From Candidatus Atabeyarchaeum deiterrae (lineage in GTDB: Archaea; Asgardarchaeota; Atabeyarchaeia; Atabeyarchaeales; Atabeyarchaeaceae), in contig CP147780.1 of NCBI GenBank assembly GCA_037310415.1, positions 2,496,001-2,560,000 on the forward strand: a DNA stretch of 64,000 bases. The letters run 5' to 3'. Shown here in pieces: positions 39,004 through 61,055 of the stretch (within the stretch, counting starts at the first letter, position 1; the number at the start of each line of letters is the position of its first letter). Made by a program: the position numbers and the translations under genes. Below the pieces are notes generated by a model that was not told the origin of the DNA, did not search any database, and saw only the letters and a program-made list of their open reading frames with translations.

Positions 39004-42000
39004 CTAGTCACGTCTGTGGAACCGCCTCTTGGAATTCGCTGCCTTATCTCCTCTTTTGGTGCTTTGGTTGTCTCTGTTGTTGAGTGAATCCAATTCTCTC
39101 TGTCTGGCTCTGAGCACGTATGTTGCTGACATCAGACATCCTGAACCTATTAGAAGGCTGAAACCAAGAGGTGAAAAGATGGCGTCTAAGATGGAGGTTT
39201 CCCAGCTCTCACCGGTTCCGTCATTATTGTCACCATTGTTCGAGGTCGAGCGCGGGGTAGCTTCCACCAACAGGACCTCCGACGTTGATCCAGAATAGTA
39301 CTCGGTTGTTTGGAATTCGCAGTAGATGGAATAGTTGCCATTCTCATTCACTGTGAATTGCGCCGAGGCGGAGCCATTGAGCCTCGTTGTTGATAACAGA
39401 GTTGTTTGCTTCTCTGAAGGACCCAGAACGACGAATGTTATGCTCGAATTTGCAACCGCTTTGCTACTAGTTATTTCTGAGAGCTGTGCTCCAAGTTGCA
39501 GAATAGAACCAACGCATATCGGATCCAAGGCAACATGATTTGACGAGATCGCGAGTCTGGTGGCTGTCTTATTGACATAGATTGCTTTTGACGAATTTGC
39601 AGGGCTAAGTGTACGAGAGCCGTCGAAGATGATGCTAATACAGTATGCGGCTGAGCAGTACGGTTTCCAAGCGAAGGCGAGTTGACCTGACGAATTTGAT
39701 GATGCGGTTTCCGACAGCGAGCTATTCACATAGAGACGAAGGCTGGCTCCGATGATAGGTGTCCAACTTGCATTCAGCGCATGAATTGATGCTGAAACGG
39801 AAGTGTTTGAAGTTGTGAGATAGCAGACGTCGACAGGAGTAGTTATGACTAGATCAATCAGGGTCCTGTTATTCGATATTGTCACCGTAAGCTGGGTGAG
39901 ACTGGTCTGATATCTTTCCTTGGAACATCTGAAAGTCACGCATTGCGATCCTAGGAGAGAGTTATCATATGGAACACTGATGTTTGAAGCGTACTTTCCG
40001 CTGCTGACCGGCGTTTCAAAGCATGAATAGGCGTGGGTTCCGAGCTTGATTCTCGCTGTCGCACCAGTCATTGGTGACAGGAATTTGTCATCGGTCATTG
40101 TAAAATTGGCGGCATAGCAGAGTCCTTGTTGCATTTCACTAGGTGCACTGACTGAGTGGATGGCAGTTTTTAGTTGCTTCGCTGCAACCCAGGTGTAGTT
40201 GCAGTCACTGAGGATCTCCACTGACATTCTCGTTGTATCAAGCCGGTAATTGACCTTGTCATTATCCTCGAATGCTCCGTCAGGTTTCTCAAAGCTCTTC
40301 ACAAACTTGACTAGTGATGTCTTGTTGATGATGGAGAGTTCGTTGAGTGCTTGCAGTCCCTTGAAGGAGTAATAGCTGTCAACTAGATTTGAGAATAAGC
40401 TGGACTGGAGGAATGCAGTTGTTTTTCCGTAGTCCACCTGCGACAATGCATTCAGCAGCTTTAGTGAGGCTAAGGACATAAAGGTGGCTTCAGCTGGAGA
40501 GTAGGGCTCCATCATGTAGCTGTCATCATTGAAGGAGCCTGTCGACGGATCGTAAAGACTCATTATTCTCTGTACTGTAAGAGCCGTGTCGGTTAGGTGA
40601 CTTGTGAATTCGTTTGTGAAGTTTAGGAAGGCAGCTAGGTTCCTCATACAGTTGAGGGCGTGATATGTGTAGCGCAGTCCTGCGGTTAGGTTACTTGCAG
40701 GTGCACTGGAGAAGCTCTTGTAGTAGCCACAATAAGACCCTGTGGTGACTTCGCACTGGCAAATTTCGTTCCAAATCTGCAATGCATGGCTATTTATCCA
40801 GCTATTGCGGTCGAGGTTCAGTAGAGAGGTTGTGGCTAGATCTGTTAGTATTACACCGGTTCGACCTCTTTGAATGGACGAGTATTCAAAGGGCTCTTCC
40901 ACGATGAAGCTACTGTAACCGTCCGAGCTTGCAGGGTAGCTGATTCTGAGCCATTCAAAACGGGCCGAAATATCGCTGTATGAATAGATTATTGAGTTGA
41001 ACAAATGGGTCGATTCTGCTGAATCTAGGAGACCGAGGTTGCAGAGAGTTGATATCGCGTTAGTGGTCTGCCAGAGGTTAGACAAAGTTCGTGGGATATT
41101 TGAGAAACCATACATTGGCTCTGGAGAAAGACATCTATTCAGAAACTCGATGAACCCTCCGATGTCCCTAATCATGTTGGTGTAGCCTATCAGTTGTAGC
41201 CCAAGAATCACTGGATAGCAGTCCCTGACTTCATCTACAGCTTCATCTGTGCAATTAGCTTCGGACCATCCTCCGTCTTTGAACTGGACTGCTGTCAGAT
41301 AATTGGCCACAAGCCATTGATCAATGTTCTGCGTTTTGCCAAGTATGTAGAGGCTTGCAATGGAGTAGCCTGTTCCATCATTAACTAGGTTACGTTTGTG
41401 AAAAATGTGCTCATCATAGAATATCCCTTTTGATGGTACGTATCCATTCATCAACCATTGCTCAGCGATTATTCGATTCGCTGAGTCCAACGCGCCAAGC
41501 AATTTGAGACTAGTTAGTGCCATGTAAGTGGAAGTAGCGAAGGATATGCCGGCGGGTGCATTAGAAAACCCACCATAGTTGGCAGTATCCCATTGGTTCT
41601 GGTTCTGGCAGGATAGAAGGTAGTCTACGACTCGAGTTCTGTTGATAGTATTGAGGCTTCCCGCAGCATTCAATCCTTGCAATGCCCAATAGGTATTCGT
41701 AACATCCCTCGAAGTGTCTCCACGGAAGCGGACGAATCCATCCCCAAGCTGGCACGATCGAAGGTATTTTGAAGTCTTCGTTACATTGATCTTGCCCAAT
41801 GCGCCAAAGCTGGAAAGCGTGAGGAGGGCCATCCCGGTCTCGACCACCGTGGGTTCGGACGACTGTGTAGAATATCTTTGAGGGGACCAGAATGCCCCTT
41901 CTGTGAACGAGTAGCAGTAGTCTACGAGCCAGTCAGCCAAGGCTGAGGTGTTGATAACGTCAAGTCTCCCAACAAGTTTCAATGACTCGCAAGCGTAATA

Positions 42001-42960
42001 CGTTGCGGAGATCTCGGGTTCAAAGTAGTCACCGAATCCACCTGTCCAATATTCTGACTCGGATGCGTTTAGACTCTCAGCTTCATTTAAGAAGTCATGA
42101 ACTAGTTCAAGATCTGTATACCCACCCATCCACTCAACAGTATTTGCAAAGAGATGTTTGCCATTTTCATTCAGAGTTGATGGATCCTGGAATGCCCACC
42201 AGAAGACTCGCCCATTACTTCCACGCGAACTGTAGAGGGCTCCGACGACCGATTCAGTAACTCCTACAACAATACCAAAACTGTAGAGATGGTCAATCGT
42301 GTTCGCTGGATATGATTCAACGCTTACGGCTTGACAGAACATCTCAATCGAGTGAGGCGGGCCAAATCCAGATTCGATAACCTGGTAAGGGGAAGTGAAC
42401 AGCGAGTGGCCATATCTATCAGAGGTTTTCTGAATAATCCCTGTGATGGCTACTCGACCCATAGCTTGGGTGAAGTTAGAGATTCTATCTATAATACCGT
42501 GTGACGCGCCGAGAAGTATTAGAGGCTGCGCCGTTTCGCCGAGTGATTCAGCTTCCTGCAGCGTTATCTCTTTCCCATTAGTTCCTCCACAAGAACTATC
42601 CAACAAGACCAGATTGTAATTCCGCATTAGACTAGAATTTCCGATTGCTGCTTGAATCGGGAGAACTGCCATCTCGTATCCGTAGCTTGTGAGAAACAGA
42701 CTCCAATCATTTGCAAATGAATGTGCTCCTGTTGTAGGGTCATATAAAACGAGGAGCCGGATACTGGAAGCAAGATAATAGAAATCGCCCGAAGGTGAAG
42801 GCAATGAGGAGGAATAAGGCTTGGCGAGTTCATGGAGCGATCTCCCCGACATGGTTGGCAGTCCGGCAGCCTGCAGCCCCGCAGTCAAAGCGCTCCATGA
42901 TAAGAGGATCAGTAAAGAGACTGCCATCTTTGAGGTGTGACATGTTGCGTGGCGGTGCAT
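39004..42960 (-). CDS. Secreted, membrane-anchored protein with prenyltransferase/squalene-oxidase-type repeats and Ig-like domains
   Basis: Signal peptide; repeats such as DYLLSCQ...GGFSNAP...TYMALTSL and YLTAVQFKDGGWS; Ser/Thr-rich Ig-like domains; C-terminal TM. Confidence 0.8.
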   Translation of the reverse strand: MHRHATCHTSKMAVSLLILLSWSALTAGLQAAGLPTMSGRSLHELAKPYSSSLPSPSGDFYYLASSIRLLVLYDPTTGAHSFANDWSLFLTSYGYEMAVLPIQAAIGNSSLMRNYNLVLLDSSCGGTNGKEITLQEAESLGETAQPLILLGASHGIIDRISNFTQAMGRVAITGIIQKTSDRYGHSLFTSPYQVIESGFGPPHSIEMFCQAVSVESYPANTIDHLYSFGIVVGVTESVVGALYSSRGSNGRVFWWAFQDPSTLNENGKHLFANTVEWMGGYTDLELVHDFLNEAESLNASESEYWTGGFGDYFEPEISATYYACESLKLVGRLDVINTSALADWLVDYCYSFTEGAFWSPQRYSTQSSEPTVVETGMALLTLSSFGALGKINVTKTSKYLRSCQLGDGFVRFRGDTSRDVTNTYWALQGLNAAGSLNTINRTRVVDYLLSCQNQNQWDTANYGGFSNAPAGISFATSTYMALTSLKLLGALDSANRIIAEQWLMNGYVPSKGIFYDEHIFHKRNLVNDGTGYSIASLYILGKTQNIDQWLVANYLTAVQFKDGGWSEANCTDEAVDEVRDCYPVILGLQLIGYTNMIRDIGGFIEFLNRCLSPEPMYGFSNIPRTLSNLWQTTNAISTLCNLGLLDSAESTHLFNSIIYSYSDISARFEWLRISYPASSDGYSSFIVEEPFEYSSIQRGRTGVILTDLATTSLLNLDRNSWINSHALQIWNEICQCEVTTGSYCGYYKSFSSAPASNLTAGLRYTYHALNCMRNLAAFLNFTNEFTSHLTDTALTVQRIMSLYDPSTGSFNDDSYMMEPYSPAEATFMSLASLKLLNALSQVDYGKTTAFLQSSLFSNLVDSYYSFKGLQALNELSIINKTSLVKFVKSFEKPDGAFEDNDKVNYRLDTTRMSVEILSDCNYTWVAAKQLKTAIHSVSAPSEMQQGLCYAANFTMTDDKFLSPMTGATARIKLGTHAYSCFETPVSSGKYASNISVPYDNSLLGSQCVTFRCSKERYQTSLTQLTVTISNNRTLIDLVITTPVDVCYLTTSNTSVSASIHALNASWTPIIGASLRLYVNSSLSETASSNSSGQLAFAWKPYCSAAYCISIIFDGSRTLSPANSSKAIYVNKTATRLAISSNHVALDPICVGSILQLGAQLSEITSSKAVANSSITFVVLGPSEKQTTLLSTTRLNGSASAQFTVNENGNYSIYCEFQTTEYYSGSTSEVLLVEATPRSTSNNGDNNDGTGESWETSILDAIFSPLGFSLLIGSGCLMSATYVLRARQRELDSLNNRDNQSTKRGDKAANSKRRFHRRD

Positions 42961-43181: not shown

Positions 43182-44243
43182 CTACACTTCATTCAATATT
43201 TCTTTCTCATCCATGTGGTGGTGACAAATTGGGCAGTAGTCCTTCACGTGCAACCATTCCAACAAGTGGGTCTTGTGACTGGCGTTGCCGCAGTAGGGAC
43301 ACCACATGATCTGGTCACTTCTGTTCAATTCCAAGCCACAAACCATGCATCTTCCCATCCTAGCAGTCGTTCTGCGCTGTCTACCCCTAGCGACAGCTGA
43401 GGCAACAAGGGCTCCTCGCCTTTTCGCTCCAGTTCCTATTGATGCGCTTTCGCTAACGCGAGGATTGGCAGTTCCTGAGTGAACCTCCAAGTTTGCCCCG
43501 CAGTTCCAGCAGAAATTTGCAACTGGAAGGCGCGAGTTTTCACCACAGTATGGACAGAAATTCGCGGATGCTCTTGGTGTGATAGGCTCTTCAAACTCAT
43601 TTGAGTGTTCAGCTTCATCTGGTTCTTGAACCCCGAGAGTTGGAACTAACGTGTCAATTTCCTCTTGACTCAGGGAAGTTGTGTGACTTGACCGTCTCCC
43701 CCCCACTCTACCCGATTGAATGTTCCTTACCAGTCTTCTCCTTCTAACACCCAGAAACACGATCATCACAAGTGCCACTAGGAGCACGATGGAAGTTGGC
43801 ACCAGAACGCCGCCAAGAAACGGCGCGGTGTACATTGTGACTACTATAGAGTTATCTTGGTTGACTACAACGGTAACATCTTTGGTTACATCAGCGTACC
43901 CTTCGTACGAGACCTGGATCGTGTAATATCCAGGTAATACGCTCGCAAAATAGGCGCGCCCTTGGTAGTCCGTATAACCGTTCAACGCGGGTTGACCTCC
44001 GGGTGTCGCGATTGATATAACATGGGCTAAAGAGAGACCTTGTCCATTCTTGTTAACAACGACGACATTCAATCCGCCCGTTGTTGCGTTATAATTGGCA
44101 TTGAAAACGGTTTGCTCGCGGAAAGCATAGCTCTCACGAGGCGACTGATTCGCGCTGCCATTAGCAGCCACAAATGGTGTCATAGCCACTGTTAATAGAA
44201 TCAGAAAAATGAACAATGTTTTCCTGCTAACAGTTGCAGTCAT
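43182..44243 (-). CDS. Single-pass membrane protein: carboxypeptidase-regulatory-like ectodomain, cytoplasmic Zn ribbon + RING-like domain
   Basis: Signal peptide; TDYQG..F..VLPGYYTIQVSYEGY; TM + RRRR; CPYC..CWNC; C-x2-C-x12-C-x2-C-x4-H-x2-H-x10-C-x2-C. Confidence 0.8.
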   Translation of the reverse strand: MTATVSRKTLFIFLILLTVAMTPFVAANGSANQSPRESYAFREQTVFNANYNATTGGLNVVVVNKNGQGLSLAHVISIATPGGQPALNGYTDYQGRAYFASVLPGYYTIQVSYEGYADVTKDVTVVVNQDNSIVVTMYTAPFLGGVLVPTSIVLLVALVMIVFLGVRRRRLVRNIQSGRVGGRRSSHTTSLSQEEIDTLVPTLGVQEPDEAEHSNEFEEPITPRASANFCPYCGENSRLPVANFCWNCGANLEVHSGTANPRVSESASIGTGAKRRGALVASAVARGRQRRTTARMGRCMVCGLELNRSDQIMWCPYCGNASHKTHLLEWLHVKDYCPICHHHMDEKEILNEV

Positions 44244-44408
44244 TTTTTCCCCCCGGAGTTTTTGAACTCGTTTCCCATGCAAGGACACACTATATCAATC
44301 AATGAAAACGTTCCGCTTTTATATTTTGTCTTTCTGCTAAAAGAGGAGAACTCAAGACTGAAGCAAGGGTCTGCAATCTGATGAAAATGAAGATCTAATT
44401 TCTTGTCA

Positions 44409-52053: not shown

Positions 52054-52252
52054 ATCATGCCAGCATGAACCCGTCTACTCCTACAAGAGAGAATTCACCG
52101 TTTCTTTAATAAGCGTCTGCATCGTACCGCAGAGTCACGCGGCGTTGCTGGTAACTCGTATTCTGATCCACTATCAGAAAAAGGTGTCTATTGCGAGTAA
52201 CGATGTGTCTCGCTGAACGTTTGAGAAAGCAAGCAAGGGTTTGGTGTTGGTG

Positions 52253-53362
52253 ATGGTCGAAAAACGATGGAGGCTCTTAGACCTAGGCGGAATTGAGCCA
52301 GTTGCCACCCAAGCGGTTTACGAGGCGGTAGCTTTGGCAAGGAGCAAGGGGATTGTTCCTGACACTTTGGTCATATGCTGGCCTAGATCCCCTGTTGTCT
52401 GTGTTGGCTATTTTCAGGAAGTGGACAAGGAAGTCGATGTCGAATACTGCAGAGCAAAGAAGATCCCCATAGTCAGAAGAATTCTTGGCGGGGGCGCAGT
52501 CTACTTGGATTCGAATCAGGTGTTCTACCAGGTCATAGGTCAAAGAGGAAGCGACGCGATCCCAGTTGCAGTTGAATCGATTTTTGGCAAAATGCTGGGG
52601 GCGCCAGTCAAGACCCTCAATGAAATCGGAATTCAGGCAACTTACAAACCCGTGAATGATATTGAGGTGGAAGGTAGAAAGATCTCAGGTAATGGCGCAG
52701 GCGAGGTCGATGGAATGGCTATTCTAACAGGGAATATTATTCTCGATTTCAATTACGATGAGATGACCAAGATACTGAAGGTTCCAGATGAGAAATTCAG
52801 AGACAAACTGGTCAAATCTCTTAGGGAAAGAGTCACCACGGTGAAGCGAGAACTTGGGCAGGTGCCTCACCGACAGAAGATAATGGAGCTGCTTGTGAAT
52901 AACTTTGAGAAAACGCTGGGAGTCAGATTCGATCATGGGGTTCTAACAAAAGAAGAGCAAAGACTACTTGACAAGCTCACAAAGGAGAAGTATGCATCAA
53001 AGGAATGGACATATGAGAATAGCAGTAGACACCCTGCCTTGTCACAAACAAGAATAGTAAAGATAAGCGGTCGTTCCACGATCGGACAGGGAGTCTACAA
53101 GTCATCCGGCGGTCTGATCAGAGTCTCCGGCGAGTTCGTAGAGAGCAGCATTAATGACATATTGATTAGTGGTGACTTCACACTGATTCCGTCAAATAAA
53201 ATACCAGAATTGGAGAAAGTACTCATTACCGCGAAACTTGACGATCAGAATCTGACAGGCATCATCAGAAAGTTCTATGAGAGCCACAAAATTGAGGCAC
53301 CTGGTTCTAGTCCCGGTGACTTCGCCAGAGCAATCTTGATTGCCTCAGGAGTAAGCCACTAA
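52253..53362 (+). CDS. lplA: Lipoate-protein ligase A with C-terminal accessory domain
   Basis: VRRILGGGAVYLD, NDIEVEGRKISGNG, KSSGGLIR...ISGDF. Confidence 0.92.
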   Translation: MVEKRWRLLDLGGIEPVATQAVYEAVALARSKGIVPDTLVICWPRSPVVCVGYFQEVDKEVDVEYCRAKKIPIVRRILGGGAVYLDSNQVFYQVIGQRGSDAIPVAVESIFGKMLGAPVKTLNEIGIQATYKPVNDIEVEGRKISGNGAGEVDGMAILTGNIILDFNYDEMTKILKVPDEKFRDKLVKSLRERVTTVKRELGQVPHRQKIMELLVNNFEKTLGVRFDHGVLTKEEQRLLDKLTKEKYASKEWTYENSSRHPALSQTRIVKISGRSTIGQGVYKSSGGLIRVSGEFVESSINDILISGDFTLIPSNKIPELEKVLITAKLDDQNLTGIIRKFYESHKIEAPGSSPGDFARAILIASGVSH

Positions 53363-53475: not shown

Positions 53476-54723
53476 TCATGTCTGCAGATTTGCACCACAC
53501 TGTGGACAATAGTTCACATGAAAGCCTTTTAAAGCCAAGCCACAATATGGACAGAAGCTGGGAGATGTACGAACCATTACTCCCCTTCCATCCTCGCTTT
53601 CCCCGAGAGTCCGATCTTCCCTGTTCTGAAGCACTGGGCGGATCTCTGCACCCCGAGCGCTGCTTCTTCTTCCCAATGTCTTTACCACTGCGCCGATGAG
53701 AAACAATCCTGCAAGCAGACCTCCGCCGCCGATTATCAGAATGATCACAGGGTCGACAGGAAATGCGATGGGTCCAGTATCAGGCGATGGCACTTTCTCA
53801 ATAATGAATCCATACCAGAATTGACTACCGGAATAAATTGTGAAGGGGTGGACTTGGCTGTAGTATCCATCTTTAGAGCATTCAAATTGATAGAATCCCG
53901 TCAATATATTGTTGAAATAGACGGCCCCCCATGAATCTGTAACATTCGACAGCGCGGGTTGACCGAATGGTTCGAAACTTGAGACAACGACAACACCAGC
54001 GACAGGTGCATTTGTGACCGAGTCTACGACCCAGATAGCCAACGACCCATTTGTCGGGTTCCATAACGATTCTGCCAATCCAAGGACGTCGTATGCAGTA
54101 CAGCAAATGCCTCCTTGTTGGCATGTTATGTCTATGACCTTTCCGCTCAAGTACTGGGATGCGCCCTTCATGACCAAGTCATTTGTCAGGTTGCGATTCC
54201 ATGAATACCAATGGCTGAGTTGTGTTCCAATAAGGAAGTACTTGTCGGCCGCAGTGTCAGTAGGCTGACTGCTCTGCAACCTGTAGTGCAAGTACAAGAT
54301 AGGTTGTCCTGGAGCTGTTATTGTCAGCACTGTTTCATGCCAATCCGAATCGTCAATTGACACAATTGCGAGCATAGCGCCTTGGAATCGGCTGACATTG
54401 GAGATCGAGTACGACAGTGGCTGGAAGAAGTAGTCATAGTAATGATTGTTCAACCCAGAGCATAATCCCTCATATTTCGAAATCCAGTCATCTGAATCAG
54501 CAACCAAGGGATGATTCACTACTGTCCATCCAGTGAAATCATCTGTCTCAAAGTCGCCATTTATTATTGCGTTTGTGCCATTGCTTGGTGAAGAATGATA
54601 TGCTGGATATGCCAACGCACTGCCGATGCTGGTACCTGGCTTAGCGATTGGGACAGGAGTCGCCAAGGCTACCAGCAGGACAGCAATGATTAACCCACTG
54701 GCCAGAATTCTCTGCTTTCTCAG
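53476..54723 (-). CDS. Single-pass membrane protein: beta-sandwich + carboxypeptidase-regulatory-like ectodomain, cytoplasmic Zn ribbon
   Basis: INGDFET..TGW; TDSWG..F..ILTGFYQFECSKDGY; TM; CPYC...CPQC; signal peptide is complete only if started at CTG 54723 or ACG 54732. Confidence 0.78.
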   Translation of the reverse strand: MRKQRILASGLIIAVLLVALATPVPIAKPGTSIGSALAYPAYHSSPSNGTNAIINGDFETDDFTGWTVVNHPLVADSDDWISKYEGLCSGLNNHYYDYFFQPLSYSISNVSRFQGAMLAIVSIDDSDWHETVLTITAPGQPILYLHYRLQSSQPTDTAADKYFLIGTQLSHWYSWNRNLTNDLVMKGASQYLSGKVIDITCQQGGICCTAYDVLGLAESLWNPTNGSLAIWVVDSVTNAPVAGVVVVSSFEPFGQPALSNVTDSWGAVYFNNILTGFYQFECSKDGYYSQVHPFTIYSGSQFWYGFIIEKVPSPDTGPIAFPVDPVIILIIGGGGLLAGLFLIGAVVKTLGRRSSARGAEIRPVLQNREDRTLGESEDGRGVMVRTSPSFCPYCGLALKGFHVNYCPQCGANLQT

Positions 54724-54821
54724 CTTGTCCGTCTCTCTTGTTCCTCCTCAATTGCACTAAACAATGAAATCGATTTCACACTCTTAAGTTCTTCTCTTGT
54801 AGCCACGTTGGTCTCCTTCTC

Positions 54822-56669
54822 TCAGGAATGGCGGATGATTAGTCTGCGCCCAGTATGCTCATCTTTGAGGTCTCCTTCGTTCAAATGGCTACCGCACATC
54901 GGACAGTAGTTCCTCAAATGGATCCACTGAAGCAGATGAGCTCTGTGCCCAGCATTTCCACAGTGTGGACAGTACAGGATCGGCTCACTTGATTCGACAT
55001 TTGAGCCACAGACCATGCATTTTCCTCCAACACGAGGTTCGATCTTTGCTCTCTCAATAGGTTTTATGGTCGACCTAGGAAACGTTCCCAGCCTTACCCC
55101 GCAGTTGAAGCAATACAATGAGTCAGGATGTGAAACCTCGGCGCCACAGTTGTGGCAATATCTCGGAGTGGAAATGGGAGCCGCCTCTCCGCGGACAGAT
55201 TCAGTCTCTTGTCGAAGGTCCCTTCCGATCGGATAGTCACGCATCGACGCTCTTACTTGACGACGTCGTATCGTCGAGACAACACCCATGATTGCGATCA
55301 GAAAGACTGCCCCTCCCGATATCAATAGAAAGTTGAAGTCAAAAGTGCTACCAGGATTCCCATCACCACCCAGATTACCACCGGTAAGCGGGGAAAGAGC
55401 AGTACCTATGCAGTAGACAGAATTTGAACCTACTGCCACTACGATTTCCTGTCTGCCATCTGCATTCAGATCTGCGAAGGATGGAGGCGCGCTTAAGTAA
55501 TCACCCAAATAGAATTTCCACTCAAGGCCATAAACCGTGTCACCGCAGTAGAGATTGTTATCAGAGCCTGCCACCACAACTTCGTTGCGGAGGTTTCCGT
55601 CCATATCGGCAATCCCGGGAGAGAAACTGTAGAGATAGGAGTCCGCCATAAAAAGATATTTCACTCCCTCGATCCCGTCAAGGAACAAGACGCTGGATCC
55701 TCCTGAGGGAATCACAACTTCCTGTTGGGAATCTGTGTCGATATTGCCGACCGCAGCGATTCCTCCAGATGGCGATTTGTAAATAGACTTTACTGAACCA
55801 TTGCCATTGAGACAGTAGATGTTGCCATCGTAAGATCCCACTACTATTACTGGCTTTCCACTTCCATCTCCATTGAAAACGACTGGGGGAAAAGTATAGT
55901 AGTTGTAATAGCTTGGTCCTTGGCTGCGACTCCAGTTCAAAGCGCCTGTTTCATTAAGACAGTAGATTGTGGTGGTTACCTGTCCATACTGGTCATACGC
56001 ACTTGAGAATAACACTATCTCAGGTTTGCCATCCTCGTTTAAGTCGGCGACGACAGGCGGCGAAAGACTGCCTCCTGCATTGAACTTCCACTGTAGTCCC
56101 CCCGTCCCATTTAAGCAGTACAGTGTATAGTTGTCCGATTCTGCAAATATCTTTTGGCCAACGCCTCCGCCAACTTTCGCTATTACCAGAGCCGGAGTGA
56201 TTGGACTTCCCGTCGCAAAGCTCCACTTCAAGCCACCAGTACTGTTCAGGCAGTAGACATACGAATTATAGGACCCAAGCACTATTTCCTTCTGTCCGTC
56301 ACCGTCCACATCTGCAGCCACAACAGAGGAAACGGAGTCTGGCACGCTTTGGGACACCCATTTCAAACTTCCATTATTGCCTAGCCAGTAGAAACCATAG
56401 TAACCGCCCTGACCGAAAAGGATCTCCAGCTTTCCATCATTGTCAATGTCATCGACGCAAGGTCTGCAGTTGAAGTAGCCCCCATATGTCTGATAGCGCC
56501 ATTCTATTGTCGGCACAATATAGCCATATACGAAATTTCGTTGGGTATGATTGTCCACCATCAACTTCGTAATGCCAAGTTGGCTTGTTCTAGCACTAGA
56601 CGGACTGCTTATCAATAGGGAAATAATCACTACCGCTCCGATGGCGAACAATCGATTTCGCGTTTTCAG
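54822..56669 (-). CDS. Single-pass membrane protein: FG-GAP/PQQ-type beta-propeller ectodomain, Zn ribbon + RING-like domain
   Basis: Repeats ADVDGDGQKEIVLGS...YCLN..G.LKW; TM; CHNC..CFNC; same RING spacing as the 43 kb gene; CTG start at 56669 inferred. Confidence 0.82.
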   Translation of the reverse strand: MKTRNRLFAIGAVVIISLLISSPSSARTSQLGITKLMVDNHTQRNFVYGYIVPTIEWRYQTYGGYFNCRPCVDDIDNDGKLEILFGQGGYYGFYWLGNNGSLKWVSQSVPDSVSSVVAADVDGDGQKEIVLGSYNSYVYCLNSTGGLKWSFATGSPITPALVIAKVGGGVGQKIFAESDNYTLYCLNGTGGLQWKFNAGGSLSPPVVADLNEDGKPEIVLFSSAYDQYGQVTTTIYCLNETGALNWSRSQGPSYYNYYTFPPVVFNGDGSGKPVIVVGSYDGNIYCLNGNGSVKSIYKSPSGGIAAVGNIDTDSQQEVVIPSGGSSVLFLDGIEGVKYLFMADSYLYSFSPGIADMDGNLRNEVVVAGSDNNLYCGDTVYGLEWKFYLGDYLSAPPSFADLNADGRQEIVVAVGSNSVYCIGTALSPLTGGNLGGDGNPGSTFDFNFLLISGGAVFLIAIMGVVSTIRRRQVRASMRDYPIGRDLRQETESVRGEAAPISTPRYCHNCGAEVSHPDSLYCFNCGVRLGTFPRSTIKPIERAKIEPRVGGKCMVCGSNVESSEPILYCPHCGNAGHRAHLLQWIHLRNYCPMCGSHLNEGDLKDEHTGRRLIIRHS

Positions 56670-60089: not shown

Positions 60090-61055
60090 CTACATTTTCG
60101 CCTGCTCATCACCGCTCTTTCTCAGCTCAGACTCAAGCCTTCTAAATTCCTCCACCGGGATCAGATGCATGTAGTACTTGGACTTGGGGCTGCCACGAAT
60201 GAGAATGTGCTTAATGTGGCCGCTCCTACACCATCTTATCACAGTTGAAAGCGAGATAAGACCATGCAACCTCTGAGCAACTTCAAAAGGCGAGTAGAAT
60301 CTCAACTTCAACTCTGAAAGCGCACTGCTCAACTTCTCAACCTTCAACAGCCACCGTTGCACCTTCCACGAGTACTCGGTTATTCCCCTGCTCAACAAAG
60401 CTTCCCTCCCACGTTTCAAGATAGAGACAACTCTACCATTACTCTCAGAACCTGCATACCCCACCGAGACACCGTTAGGAGTCAAGCCGTCGACATACGC
60501 TTCAAGGAAATCAATTAGAAACGGGAACAATGTTTGAGCGAAACCCCAATGGGAAACCACCGCACCAAAGACACTATCCCTGTAATCCATCCTTACACTA
60601 GCATGCCCATCTCCGTCAATGAGACCAGCAATGAAAGGAACACCACACCTTATACCAAATAACTTGTTCTCCACCAGAAAACTCTCGACTTCTGCAATAC
60701 CCTTCCCTCTAAGAGCTTGCTTATCGGGAAGAAATCTACAGAGGTCCTTCGAGTTTACAGCCACTGTCACCATCTTCTTCTTCGAATGCTTCCACTTGAA
60801 TGGATTCAAACCAACACGCTTTAACAATTTAACCACCCTACATGCCAACTCCTCCTCCTTGCCCTCAGTGAGAAGAAAGCTAACGGTATACGATGTACTA
60901 CTCCTCCTCGCATAAGTGTAGGACTGTCCATCGGCAAGAAATAACCCGCGAAGGTAGCTCCATTCCTCAACGGAGAGCGCATGAACTTGAAGCACACGCA
61001 GCCCACTGGGGCATGAGGAACCAGATCCCCCGGAACAACTATTATTATTGCACAA
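60090..61055 (-). mobile_element. Free-standing double-LAGLIDADG homing-endonuclease-like gene with C-terminal excisionase-type HTH
   Basis: YLRGLFLADGQ and FIAGLIDGDGH motifs; FYSPFEVAQRL...STVIRWCRSGHIK HTH; base composition differs from the flanks; exact start uncertain. Confidence 0.75.

Follow-up and report, generated by a model that had tools for sequence, protein, structure and literature searches.

Ubiquitin, E1, E2, a small RING E3 (ubiquitin ligase) and the ESCRT-I/II complexes of endosomal sorting are recognised 'eukaryotic signature' components of Asgard archaea, and RING fingers are listed among the Asgard signature proteins (PMC11291895). The archaeal small RING finger protein (srfp), the E3 of archaeal ubiquitin operons, has been shown by experiment to be active in the case of Caldiarchaeum subterraneum; mutagenesis established that its E2-dependent transfer requires I30 and W58, R69 is its 'linchpin' Arg, and the authors also note shifted third and fourth ligands (PMC5654768). 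Here, a stretch of 64,000 nucleotides of Candidatus Atabeyarchaeum deiterrae, hereafter the window (bases 2,496,001-2,560,000 of a single-contig 2.76-Mb genome with 46.6% GC), was examined with regard to three genes, termed A, B and C, all of which are on the minus strand and encode proteins of 368-609 amino acids. The A and C proteins prove to be members of a large modular Asgard family, characterised by a cytoplasmic tail of Zn ribbon, linker and RING, by interchangeable extracellular modules and, usually, by one transmembrane segment. The B protein is related to them and lacks the RING.

Gene C (54822-56651; 609 amino acids from TTG 56651) encodes, in order, a hydrophobic N-terminus or signal peptide, an FG-GAP-type beta-propeller ectodomain with eight N-x-S/T sequons (55374-56573), a single transmembrane helix located by hydropathy (55266-55346), the sequence RRQVR in accordance with the positive-inside rule, a cytoplasmic Zn ribbon of spacing C-x2-C-x11-C-x2-C (55098-55157) and a C-terminal cross-brace RING finger with C4-H2-C2 ligands (54894-55019). 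The propeller repeats score above the respective Pfam cut-offs (PF13517, 75.1 bits; PF01839, 42.4 bits; PF25292, 87.3 bits) and are matched also by a family-specific hidden Markov model (HMM). Gene A (43182-44288), referred to as the 43 kb gene in a preliminary description of this DNA, encodes a signal peptide followed by a CarboxypepD_reg domain (43851-44078; 43.6 bits against a PF13620 cut-off of 32.3), a transmembrane segment placed by hydropathy (43728-43835), a Zn ribbon of the same spacing as that of C (43497-43556) and a RING (43224-43349), with 50 residues between ribbon and RING as opposed to 27 in C. When the two proteins were compared by pairwise BLAST the tails matched with an E-value of 3e-24, whereas the ectodomains were unrelated. 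The earlier proposal that C joins a propeller ectodomain to the ribbon and identically spaced RING of A is thus borne out in every part, including the exact RING coordinates. The ribbons match DZR and Zn_ribbon_3, with DZR scores of 30.3, 26.0 and 18.3 bits for C, A and B, respectively (cut-off 27.3), and an HMM built from the family itself returned E-values of 9e-12, 4e-10 and 8e-8 in the same order. Four Lys or Arg residues follow each transmembrane segment, and sequons occur only in the ectodomains of B and C; these signals point to an N-out/C-in topology.

The spacing of the RING finger, C-x2-C-x12-C-x2-C-x4-H-x2-H-x10-C-x2-C, is found exactly in 12 genes of this genome according to a motif census. 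One of the 12 encodes a stand-alone RING of 86 amino acids (Prok-RING_1, 32.4 bits, above the cut-off) and resides in a ubiquitin-ESCRT cluster of approximately 9 kb, some 2.2 Mb from A, B and C (C1:341-350 kb), together with genes for Vps4, Vps25, EAP30 (Vps22/36), Vps28, UEV-Vps23, JAB, ubiquitin, E2 (UQ_con, 107.8 bits) and E1. Fifteen RINGs, comprising the 12 from this genome and three from relatives, could be aligned without gaps and with all eight ligands invariant, a ligand pattern that recurs in 48 tails. Since the 86-residue RING of the cluster is part of this gap-free alignment, the A and C tails are paralogues of the genome's own operon-encoded RING, to which the RING of C is 40% identical. 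Of the RING models, Prok-RING_1 fits best, and its cut-off is surpassed by several of the paralogues encoded here.

An AlphaFold2 (AF2) model of the C tail, built on a 48-sequence alignment, has a predicted template modelling score (pTM) of 0.50, with per-residue confidence (pLDDT) of 89-96 in the RING, 71-79 in the ribbon and less than 50 in the linker, which is disordered. The modelled RING has a fold that resembles solved RING and U-box domains: Foldseek superposed it upon RNF165, TRAF6, Rad18, RNF24 and RNF126 with root mean square deviations (rmsd) of 1.2-1.8 Å over 46-57 columns, the superposition upon RNF165 being at 1.2-1.3 Å over 46-48 columns. Owing to the small size of the domain, the associated E-values are weak (4e-3 to 4e-2). 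A RING profile searched against PDB sequences gave matches to RNF24 (4.6e-9), EL5 (7e-8), RNF126 (1e-6) and RNF165/Arkadia (about 1e-5), and to AMFR and synoviolin also, several of these being membrane-anchored RING-H2 ligases. With respect to the positions that contact E2, Val or Ile is present between C1 and C2 in 15 of 15 copies, the CP-x-C motif is invariant and the central Trp is found in 13 of the 15 copies and in all 48 tails; the equivalents of srfp I30 (Val or Ile) and W58 (Trp) are therefore conserved in these tails.

The distribution of the family was examined next. Among 1.84 billion proteins, the RING profile matched the representatives of 3261 clusters at E ≤ 1e-3, a number that falls to 584 at E ≤ 1e-10. 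Of 201 Asgard genomes, 144 have one or more copies at E ≤ 1e-8, with numbers that range from 1-3 per genome in several taxonomic families to 29-32 in two genomes; one taxonomic family has none in 49 genomes. A complete sister genome encodes 29 RING-tail genes. Many of these lie in tandem arrays (G001:C1:2154-2178 kb and 2026-2030 kb; L029-L031), which include four adjacent genes for soluble proteins of about 430-460 amino acids with ribbon and RING; the family is undergoing expansion through local duplication. Among the best 150 matches to the profile the RING is almost always C-terminal, and mostly one or two transmembrane segments are present. A ribbon precedes the RING in 113 of 141 top matches, at a quantised distance that is mostly 25-28 residues (typically about 26) but can also be 6, 35 or 50. 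Pfam searches with 51 long N-terminal modules identified CarboxypepD_reg (7), FG-GAP (6), PQQ (4), PPC (4), DUF5122 propellers (3), fn3 (3), TPR (2) and arrestin (2). Two RING-tail relatives (within the set P0004-P0153) have Arrestin_N plus Arrestin_C as the N-terminal module, and two others have TPR arrays. Single-linkage clustering of the ectodomains merged several types because of mosaics, and domain-level HMMs were used in its place; these resolved architectures with FG-GAP alone, FG-GAP plus CarboxypepD_reg, one or two CarboxypepD_reg domains, SBBP-like propellers, and two domains of the type found at the distal end of B.

That domain shuffling underlies this diversity had been suggested in the preliminary description, and the suggestion is supported: the tails are homologous, and the domains attached to them have incongruent histories, as seen in the mosaic structure of B, in a pair of proteins that differ in the tail (P0088 and P0155) and in the tail tree. 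Residues 27-200 of B share 45-46% identity with either of the two tandem domains in P0088, a protein that comprises a signal peptide, two B-distal-type domains, a transmembrane segment, ribbon and RING, with no CarboxypepD_reg; the identity to the tandem domains of P0155 is likewise 45-46%. Over both ectodomains and the transmembrane segment, P0155 and P0088 share 59% identity, but P0155 ends directly after that segment and has no tail. Its gene is internal to the contig, and a convergent gene follows at a distance of 125 nt. Comparison of the two sequences supports the view that the tail comes and goes over short evolutionary distances. In a CarboxypepD_reg tree, B joins the distal domain of a sister-genome protein as opposed to A (support 95/94, long branches). 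The tail tree, calculated from the ribbon and RING of 30 typed proteins, shows N-terminal module types clustering above chance (16 changes versus 22.9 when shuffled). Even so, its starred branches unite tails that bear different N-terminal modules: A, for instance, is placed with a soluble protein, and the B-domain pair with a cl10 protein. CarboxypepD_reg requires at least two origins on it. Since the tree comprises only 82 columns it supports mosaicism qualitatively, and nothing finer.

These observations are consistent with A and C being, probably, membrane-bound ubiquitin ligases that are built like eukaryotic receptor-type E3s. The term ligase appears reasonable since the RING is paralogous to that of the genome's ubiquitin/E1/E2 cluster and has a RING fold. 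In such a scheme, the cytoplasmic tail would recruit the ubiquitin-charged E2 (E2~Ub) of the cluster on the membrane's inner face and would ubiquitylate its own protein or neighbouring membrane proteins. The ectodomain would localise or gate the enzyme, setting where, or in answer to what, ubiquitylation occurs, and the co-encoded UEV-Vps23 and ESCRT-I/II machinery could read the resultant mark. The ribbon, on its flexible linker, belongs to the conserved unit, perhaps providing a contact with substrate, ubiquitin or E2, or a means of pairing. The existence of a large modular family of Asgard membrane RING E3s that works in this manner, with a common tail and swapped ectodomains, is regarded as somewhat more probable than its converse.

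Gene B (53476-54666; 396 amino acids as called from TTG 54666) immediately follows C on the minus strand. The encoded protein has a distal ectodomain with an NGDFE..GWT motif that matches no Pfam family (54070-54588), a membrane-proximal CarboxypepD_reg-like domain (53824-54048) that scores 23.6 bits in Pfam, below the cut-off of 32.3, but 5e-27 against the family-specific HMM, a transmembrane helix followed by GRRSSAR (53680-53751) and, at the extreme C-terminus, a Zn ribbon of spacing C-x2-C-x11-C-x2-C (53497-53553). From the CarboxypepD_reg through the transmembrane helix to the ribbon, B is 27% identical to A over 211 residues (BLAST E-value 4e-14), an alignment that takes in the PFGQPALSNVTDSWG / PGGQPALNGYTDYQG motif, and B terminates at TGA TAA two codons past the ribbon. 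The previous assertion that B shares the ectodomain module and ribbon of A and stops before the RING was therefore accurate, and the pairwise resemblances of A to B and of A to C greatly exceed those that chance would give. No remnant of a RING was found downstream of B, where the 113 nt between TGA TAA and the next gene contain no Cys-rich frame. The AF2 model of the distal domain is of intermediate confidence (pLDDT 61.7), and Foldseek and Atlas comparisons returned weak matches to jelly-roll, carbohydrate-binding-module (CBM)-like or C5-epimerase beta-sandwiches (TM-score about 0.4-0.7). The domain as modelled is accordingly best described as a beta-sandwich without an assigned family, for which 'CBM-like' is only a lead. 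On sequence comparison, B is a mosaic of a distal beta-sandwich from another sub-family and a CarboxypepD_reg-transmembrane-ribbon half akin to that of the A-type proteins, the relatives of this half being A-type proteins and, in the sister genus, double-CarboxypepD_reg proteins. Since the nearest relatives of the latter half all carry RINGs, B has probably lost its RING or was built without one. The topology signals and the intact ribbon argue for B being a genuine surface protein, and the reading in which it acts as an independent ribbon-tailed surface protein is given a little less than an even chance.

The start of B is unusual. No stop codon interrupts the frame back to 54747, and the hydrophobic core of a signal peptide lies upstream of TTG 54666, ahead of which core there is no ATG, GTG or TTG; translation from TTG 54666 would yield a 300-residue ectodomain without a signal peptide. 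A CTG at 54723 is in the ideal position for a start, giving RKQR followed by the h-region. In the same manner, CTG 56669, which follows a GGGGGATGAG stretch, would add a Lys/Arg n-region to C. Hence the extents given in the preliminary description stood only in part: the open reading frames are present, but the 5' ends proposed for B and C, at 54723 and 56669, are CTG codons, with TTG 54666 and TTG 56651 being the first canonical starts. In several of the secreted RING-family genes, among them B, C and that at C1:2493253-2494575, the Lys/Arg n-region of the signal peptide is upstream of the first ATG, GTG or TTG. CTG initiation or reinitiation may occur in this organism. Between C and B there is only an upstream open reading frame (uORF) of 28 codons (54720-54806, minus strand), the GTG of which (54806) is 13 nt past the stop codon of C and is preceded by the strong Shine-Dalgarno-like sequence AAGGAG-N6. 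The TGA of the uORF overlaps CTG 54723 of the B frame as CTGA. Given that nothing but the uORF, with its GTG so close to the stop codon of C, separates the two genes, C and B are probably on one transcript, as judged from this layout. Possibly, B is translated from its CTG by termination-reinitiation, for which the CTGA overlap would have the appropriate geometry. A programmed -1 frameshift from the uORF into B was considered and judged unlikely, there being no slippery heptamer between 54747 and 54723. An error of assembly was ruled out as the cause of the missing start: the 190-nt start region of B, uORF included, is identical in two independent short-read Logan assemblies (L027 and L028), and the oddity is thus real.

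The alternative that fares best is that B is a decaying or non-functional mosaic paralogue that has lost both its RING and its start codon. The lack of a canonical start before the signal-peptide core, reproduced identically in independent assemblies, is what would be expected of such a gene, as is the omission of the signal peptide from the product of TTG 54666. The nearest relatives all have a RING, and a search of 40 relatives found no orthologue of B, the only matches being A-type RING proteins with two CarboxypepD_reg domains at about 31% identity. However, the 396-codon frame is fully open, the ribbon retains all four Cys residues, the transmembrane helix is likewise preserved and a clean TGA TAA closes the gene. 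Additionally, the CTGA overlap would suit translational coupling, and the similar CTG ahead of the n-region of C hints at unusual start usage as opposed to degeneration. Decay is accordingly viewed as an unlikely explanation, albeit one of some weight.

According to a second alternative, proposed in the preliminary description, B acts as a RING-less co-receptor or decoy, pairing via the Zn ribbon with C, or A, and so modulating the ligase. The position of B immediately after C, in the same orientation and with co-transcription likely, would suit such a role, as would a ribbon that is intact and of the same spacing, in a CarboxypepD_reg-transmembrane-ribbon region common to RING-bearing relatives. 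Ribbon-ended proteins, though, are common in this genome. The ribbon HMM detects about 30 proteins, of which at least 12 lack a RING and end in the ribbon (0-6 residues from the C-terminus), in most cases behind transmembrane segments; these are mostly polytopic membrane proteins and are unlinked to RING genes. Examples, with ribbons of spacing C-x2-C-x11..12-C-x2-C, are encoded at C1:2054100-2055314, 2691305-2692144, 2124900-2125505 and 2116295-2117155. The C-terminal ribbon is, therefore, a recurrent cytoplasmic end-module that constitutes a separate architecture in this genome. Moreover, ribbons of the DZR/Zn_ribbon type are widespread in organisms without ubiquitin, no RING-less transmembrane-ribbon partner adjoins the RING genes in the sister-genome arrays examined, and B is without an orthologue in the relatives searched. 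Taken with the start problem of B, these findings speak against the co-receptor or decoy proposal, which is considered improbable; the independent surface protein described above is preferred.

With regard to A and C, several observations weigh against the reading set out above, as does, for B, the lack of a canonical start that would take in its signal peptide. As single domains, the RINGs of A and C are below the gathering cut-offs of Prok-RING_1 and zf-RING_2: by hmmscan against Prok-RING_1 (PF14446, cut-off 29.1 bits) C scored 24.3 and A 20.8 bits, and in a six-frame search that took in neighbouring stretches C scored 34.3 and A 31.2 bits. The 'linchpin' Arg or Lys immediately after the last Cys is not conserved, the copies in this genome having G, H, N, S or E at this position (G in C, H in A and N in the operon RING), with basic residues or His 2-3 positions further on. 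In the model of the C tail the ribbon and RING adopt no fixed mutual orientation, many forks of the 82-column tail tree are weak, and E3 activity, substrates and ligand sensing are all assigned here by inference. The possibility that the tails are non-catalytic, bringing surface proteins into clusters as zinc-stabilised modules for oligomerisation or scaffolding, in the manner of the C-terminal zinc-finger/RING domains of GATOR2, IFT-A and HOPS-type proteins, would account for the missing linchpin Arg and for the top whole-tail Foldseek matches (about 100 columns), which are to C-terminal domains of IFT-A and GATOR2 (WDR24, WDR59 and MIOS), with WDR24 and WDR59 recovered in the profile search too, but it is the least probable of the readings considered, since those superpositions have an rmsd of 10-11 Å and are driven by two small domains matching separately, active RING-H2 E3s head the sequence matches, the residues that contact E2 are conserved, the closest paralogue is in the ubiquitin/E1/E2 cluster and the C. 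subterraneum orthologue, srfp, is an active E3 (PMC5654768).

Some neighbouring genes were noted in the course of the analysis. Directly downstream of A, on the same strand, is a gene for a 1318-residue secreted protein with a C-terminal transmembrane segment (39004-42960, minus). Downstream of B, and convergent with it, is a lipoate-protein-ligase-like (lplA-like) gene (52241-53362), which is whole in the window and in assembly L027 but split into open reading frames of 66 and 289 codons in L028 (3805-4919); this constitutes strain-level variation beside an otherwise identical B. An open reading frame at 60090-61055 (minus), between FAD-oxidase/CCG redox genes, encodes LAGLIDADG_3 and HTH_17 domains and may be a homing-endonuclease-derived or mobile-element gene.

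A large and rapidly diversifying family of surface-exposed proteins that bear an operon-type RING in the cytoplasm would bring E3 activity to the membrane, and would supply the missing link between ubiquitin and the recognition of cargo by ESCRT. A wider proposition is that receptor-type transmembrane RING ligases were already present in Asgard archaea, with the ectodomain binding outside the cell, the tail ubiquitylating membrane cargo and UEV-Vps23/ESCRT reading the mark, such that the sorting of surface proteins predates eukaryotes. This is put forward tentatively, and is thought rather unlikely as it stands. If true, ubiquitin-dependent down-regulation or sorting of surface proteins would be older than eukaryotes, and would have been shuffled into 10-30 genes per genome. 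The origin of eukaryotic receptor-type E3s (RNF43/ZNRF3, PA-TM-RING and ATL) should be testable with a few recombinant tails. The conserved ribbon-linker-RING unit, furthermore, is a defined module, unremarked in the literature searched, in which the role of the ribbon is open to assay.

Comparison with known systems places the A and C proteins as follows. In terms of Pfam, Prok-RING_1 (PF14446) and the DZR/Zn_ribbon families (PF12773, PF13248 and PF13240) are the best models for the RING and ribbon of the tail, although the single-domain RING scores of A and C by hmmscan fall short; a fixed ribbon-linker-RING unit attached to ectodomains, or a receptor-like membrane RING family, was not found described for Asgard archaea in the literature searched, the 2011 paper that defined Prok-RING lying outside that search. 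The eukaryotic single-pass RING-H2 E3s (PA-TM-RING RNF13/RNF128, RNF43/ZNRF3, RNF24 and plant ATL/EL5) resemble A and C in having a signal peptide, an ectodomain, one transmembrane segment and a cytosolic RING-H2-like finger, and among PDB sequences the RING profile matches RNF24 and EL5 best. Conversely, A and C have a ribbon before the RING, C4H2C2 ligands and ectodomains of the FG-GAP, CarboxypepD_reg or, in the wider family, beta-sandwich type, and a Pfam scan of A, B and C gave no match to the PA domain. Given these different ectodomains and the lack of a PA domain, A and C do not belong to these eukaryotic families, and sequence homology with the eukaryotic enzymes appears limited to the RING as opposed to covering the whole architecture. 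There is also a correspondence with srfp (PMC5654768), which has the same type of RING, with the shifted third and fourth ligands and the Ile/Val and Trp E2-contact positions, and the product of the srfp-like cluster gene of this genome gives a gap-free alignment with the A and C tails (35-47% identity within the genome). Unlike srfp, which is a soluble, operon-encoded protein of about 80-100 amino acids, A and C are dispersed and membrane-anchored, with large ectodomains and an additional Zn ribbon, and they do not conserve the linchpin R69. They are, then, paralogues of srfp, and not srfp itself.

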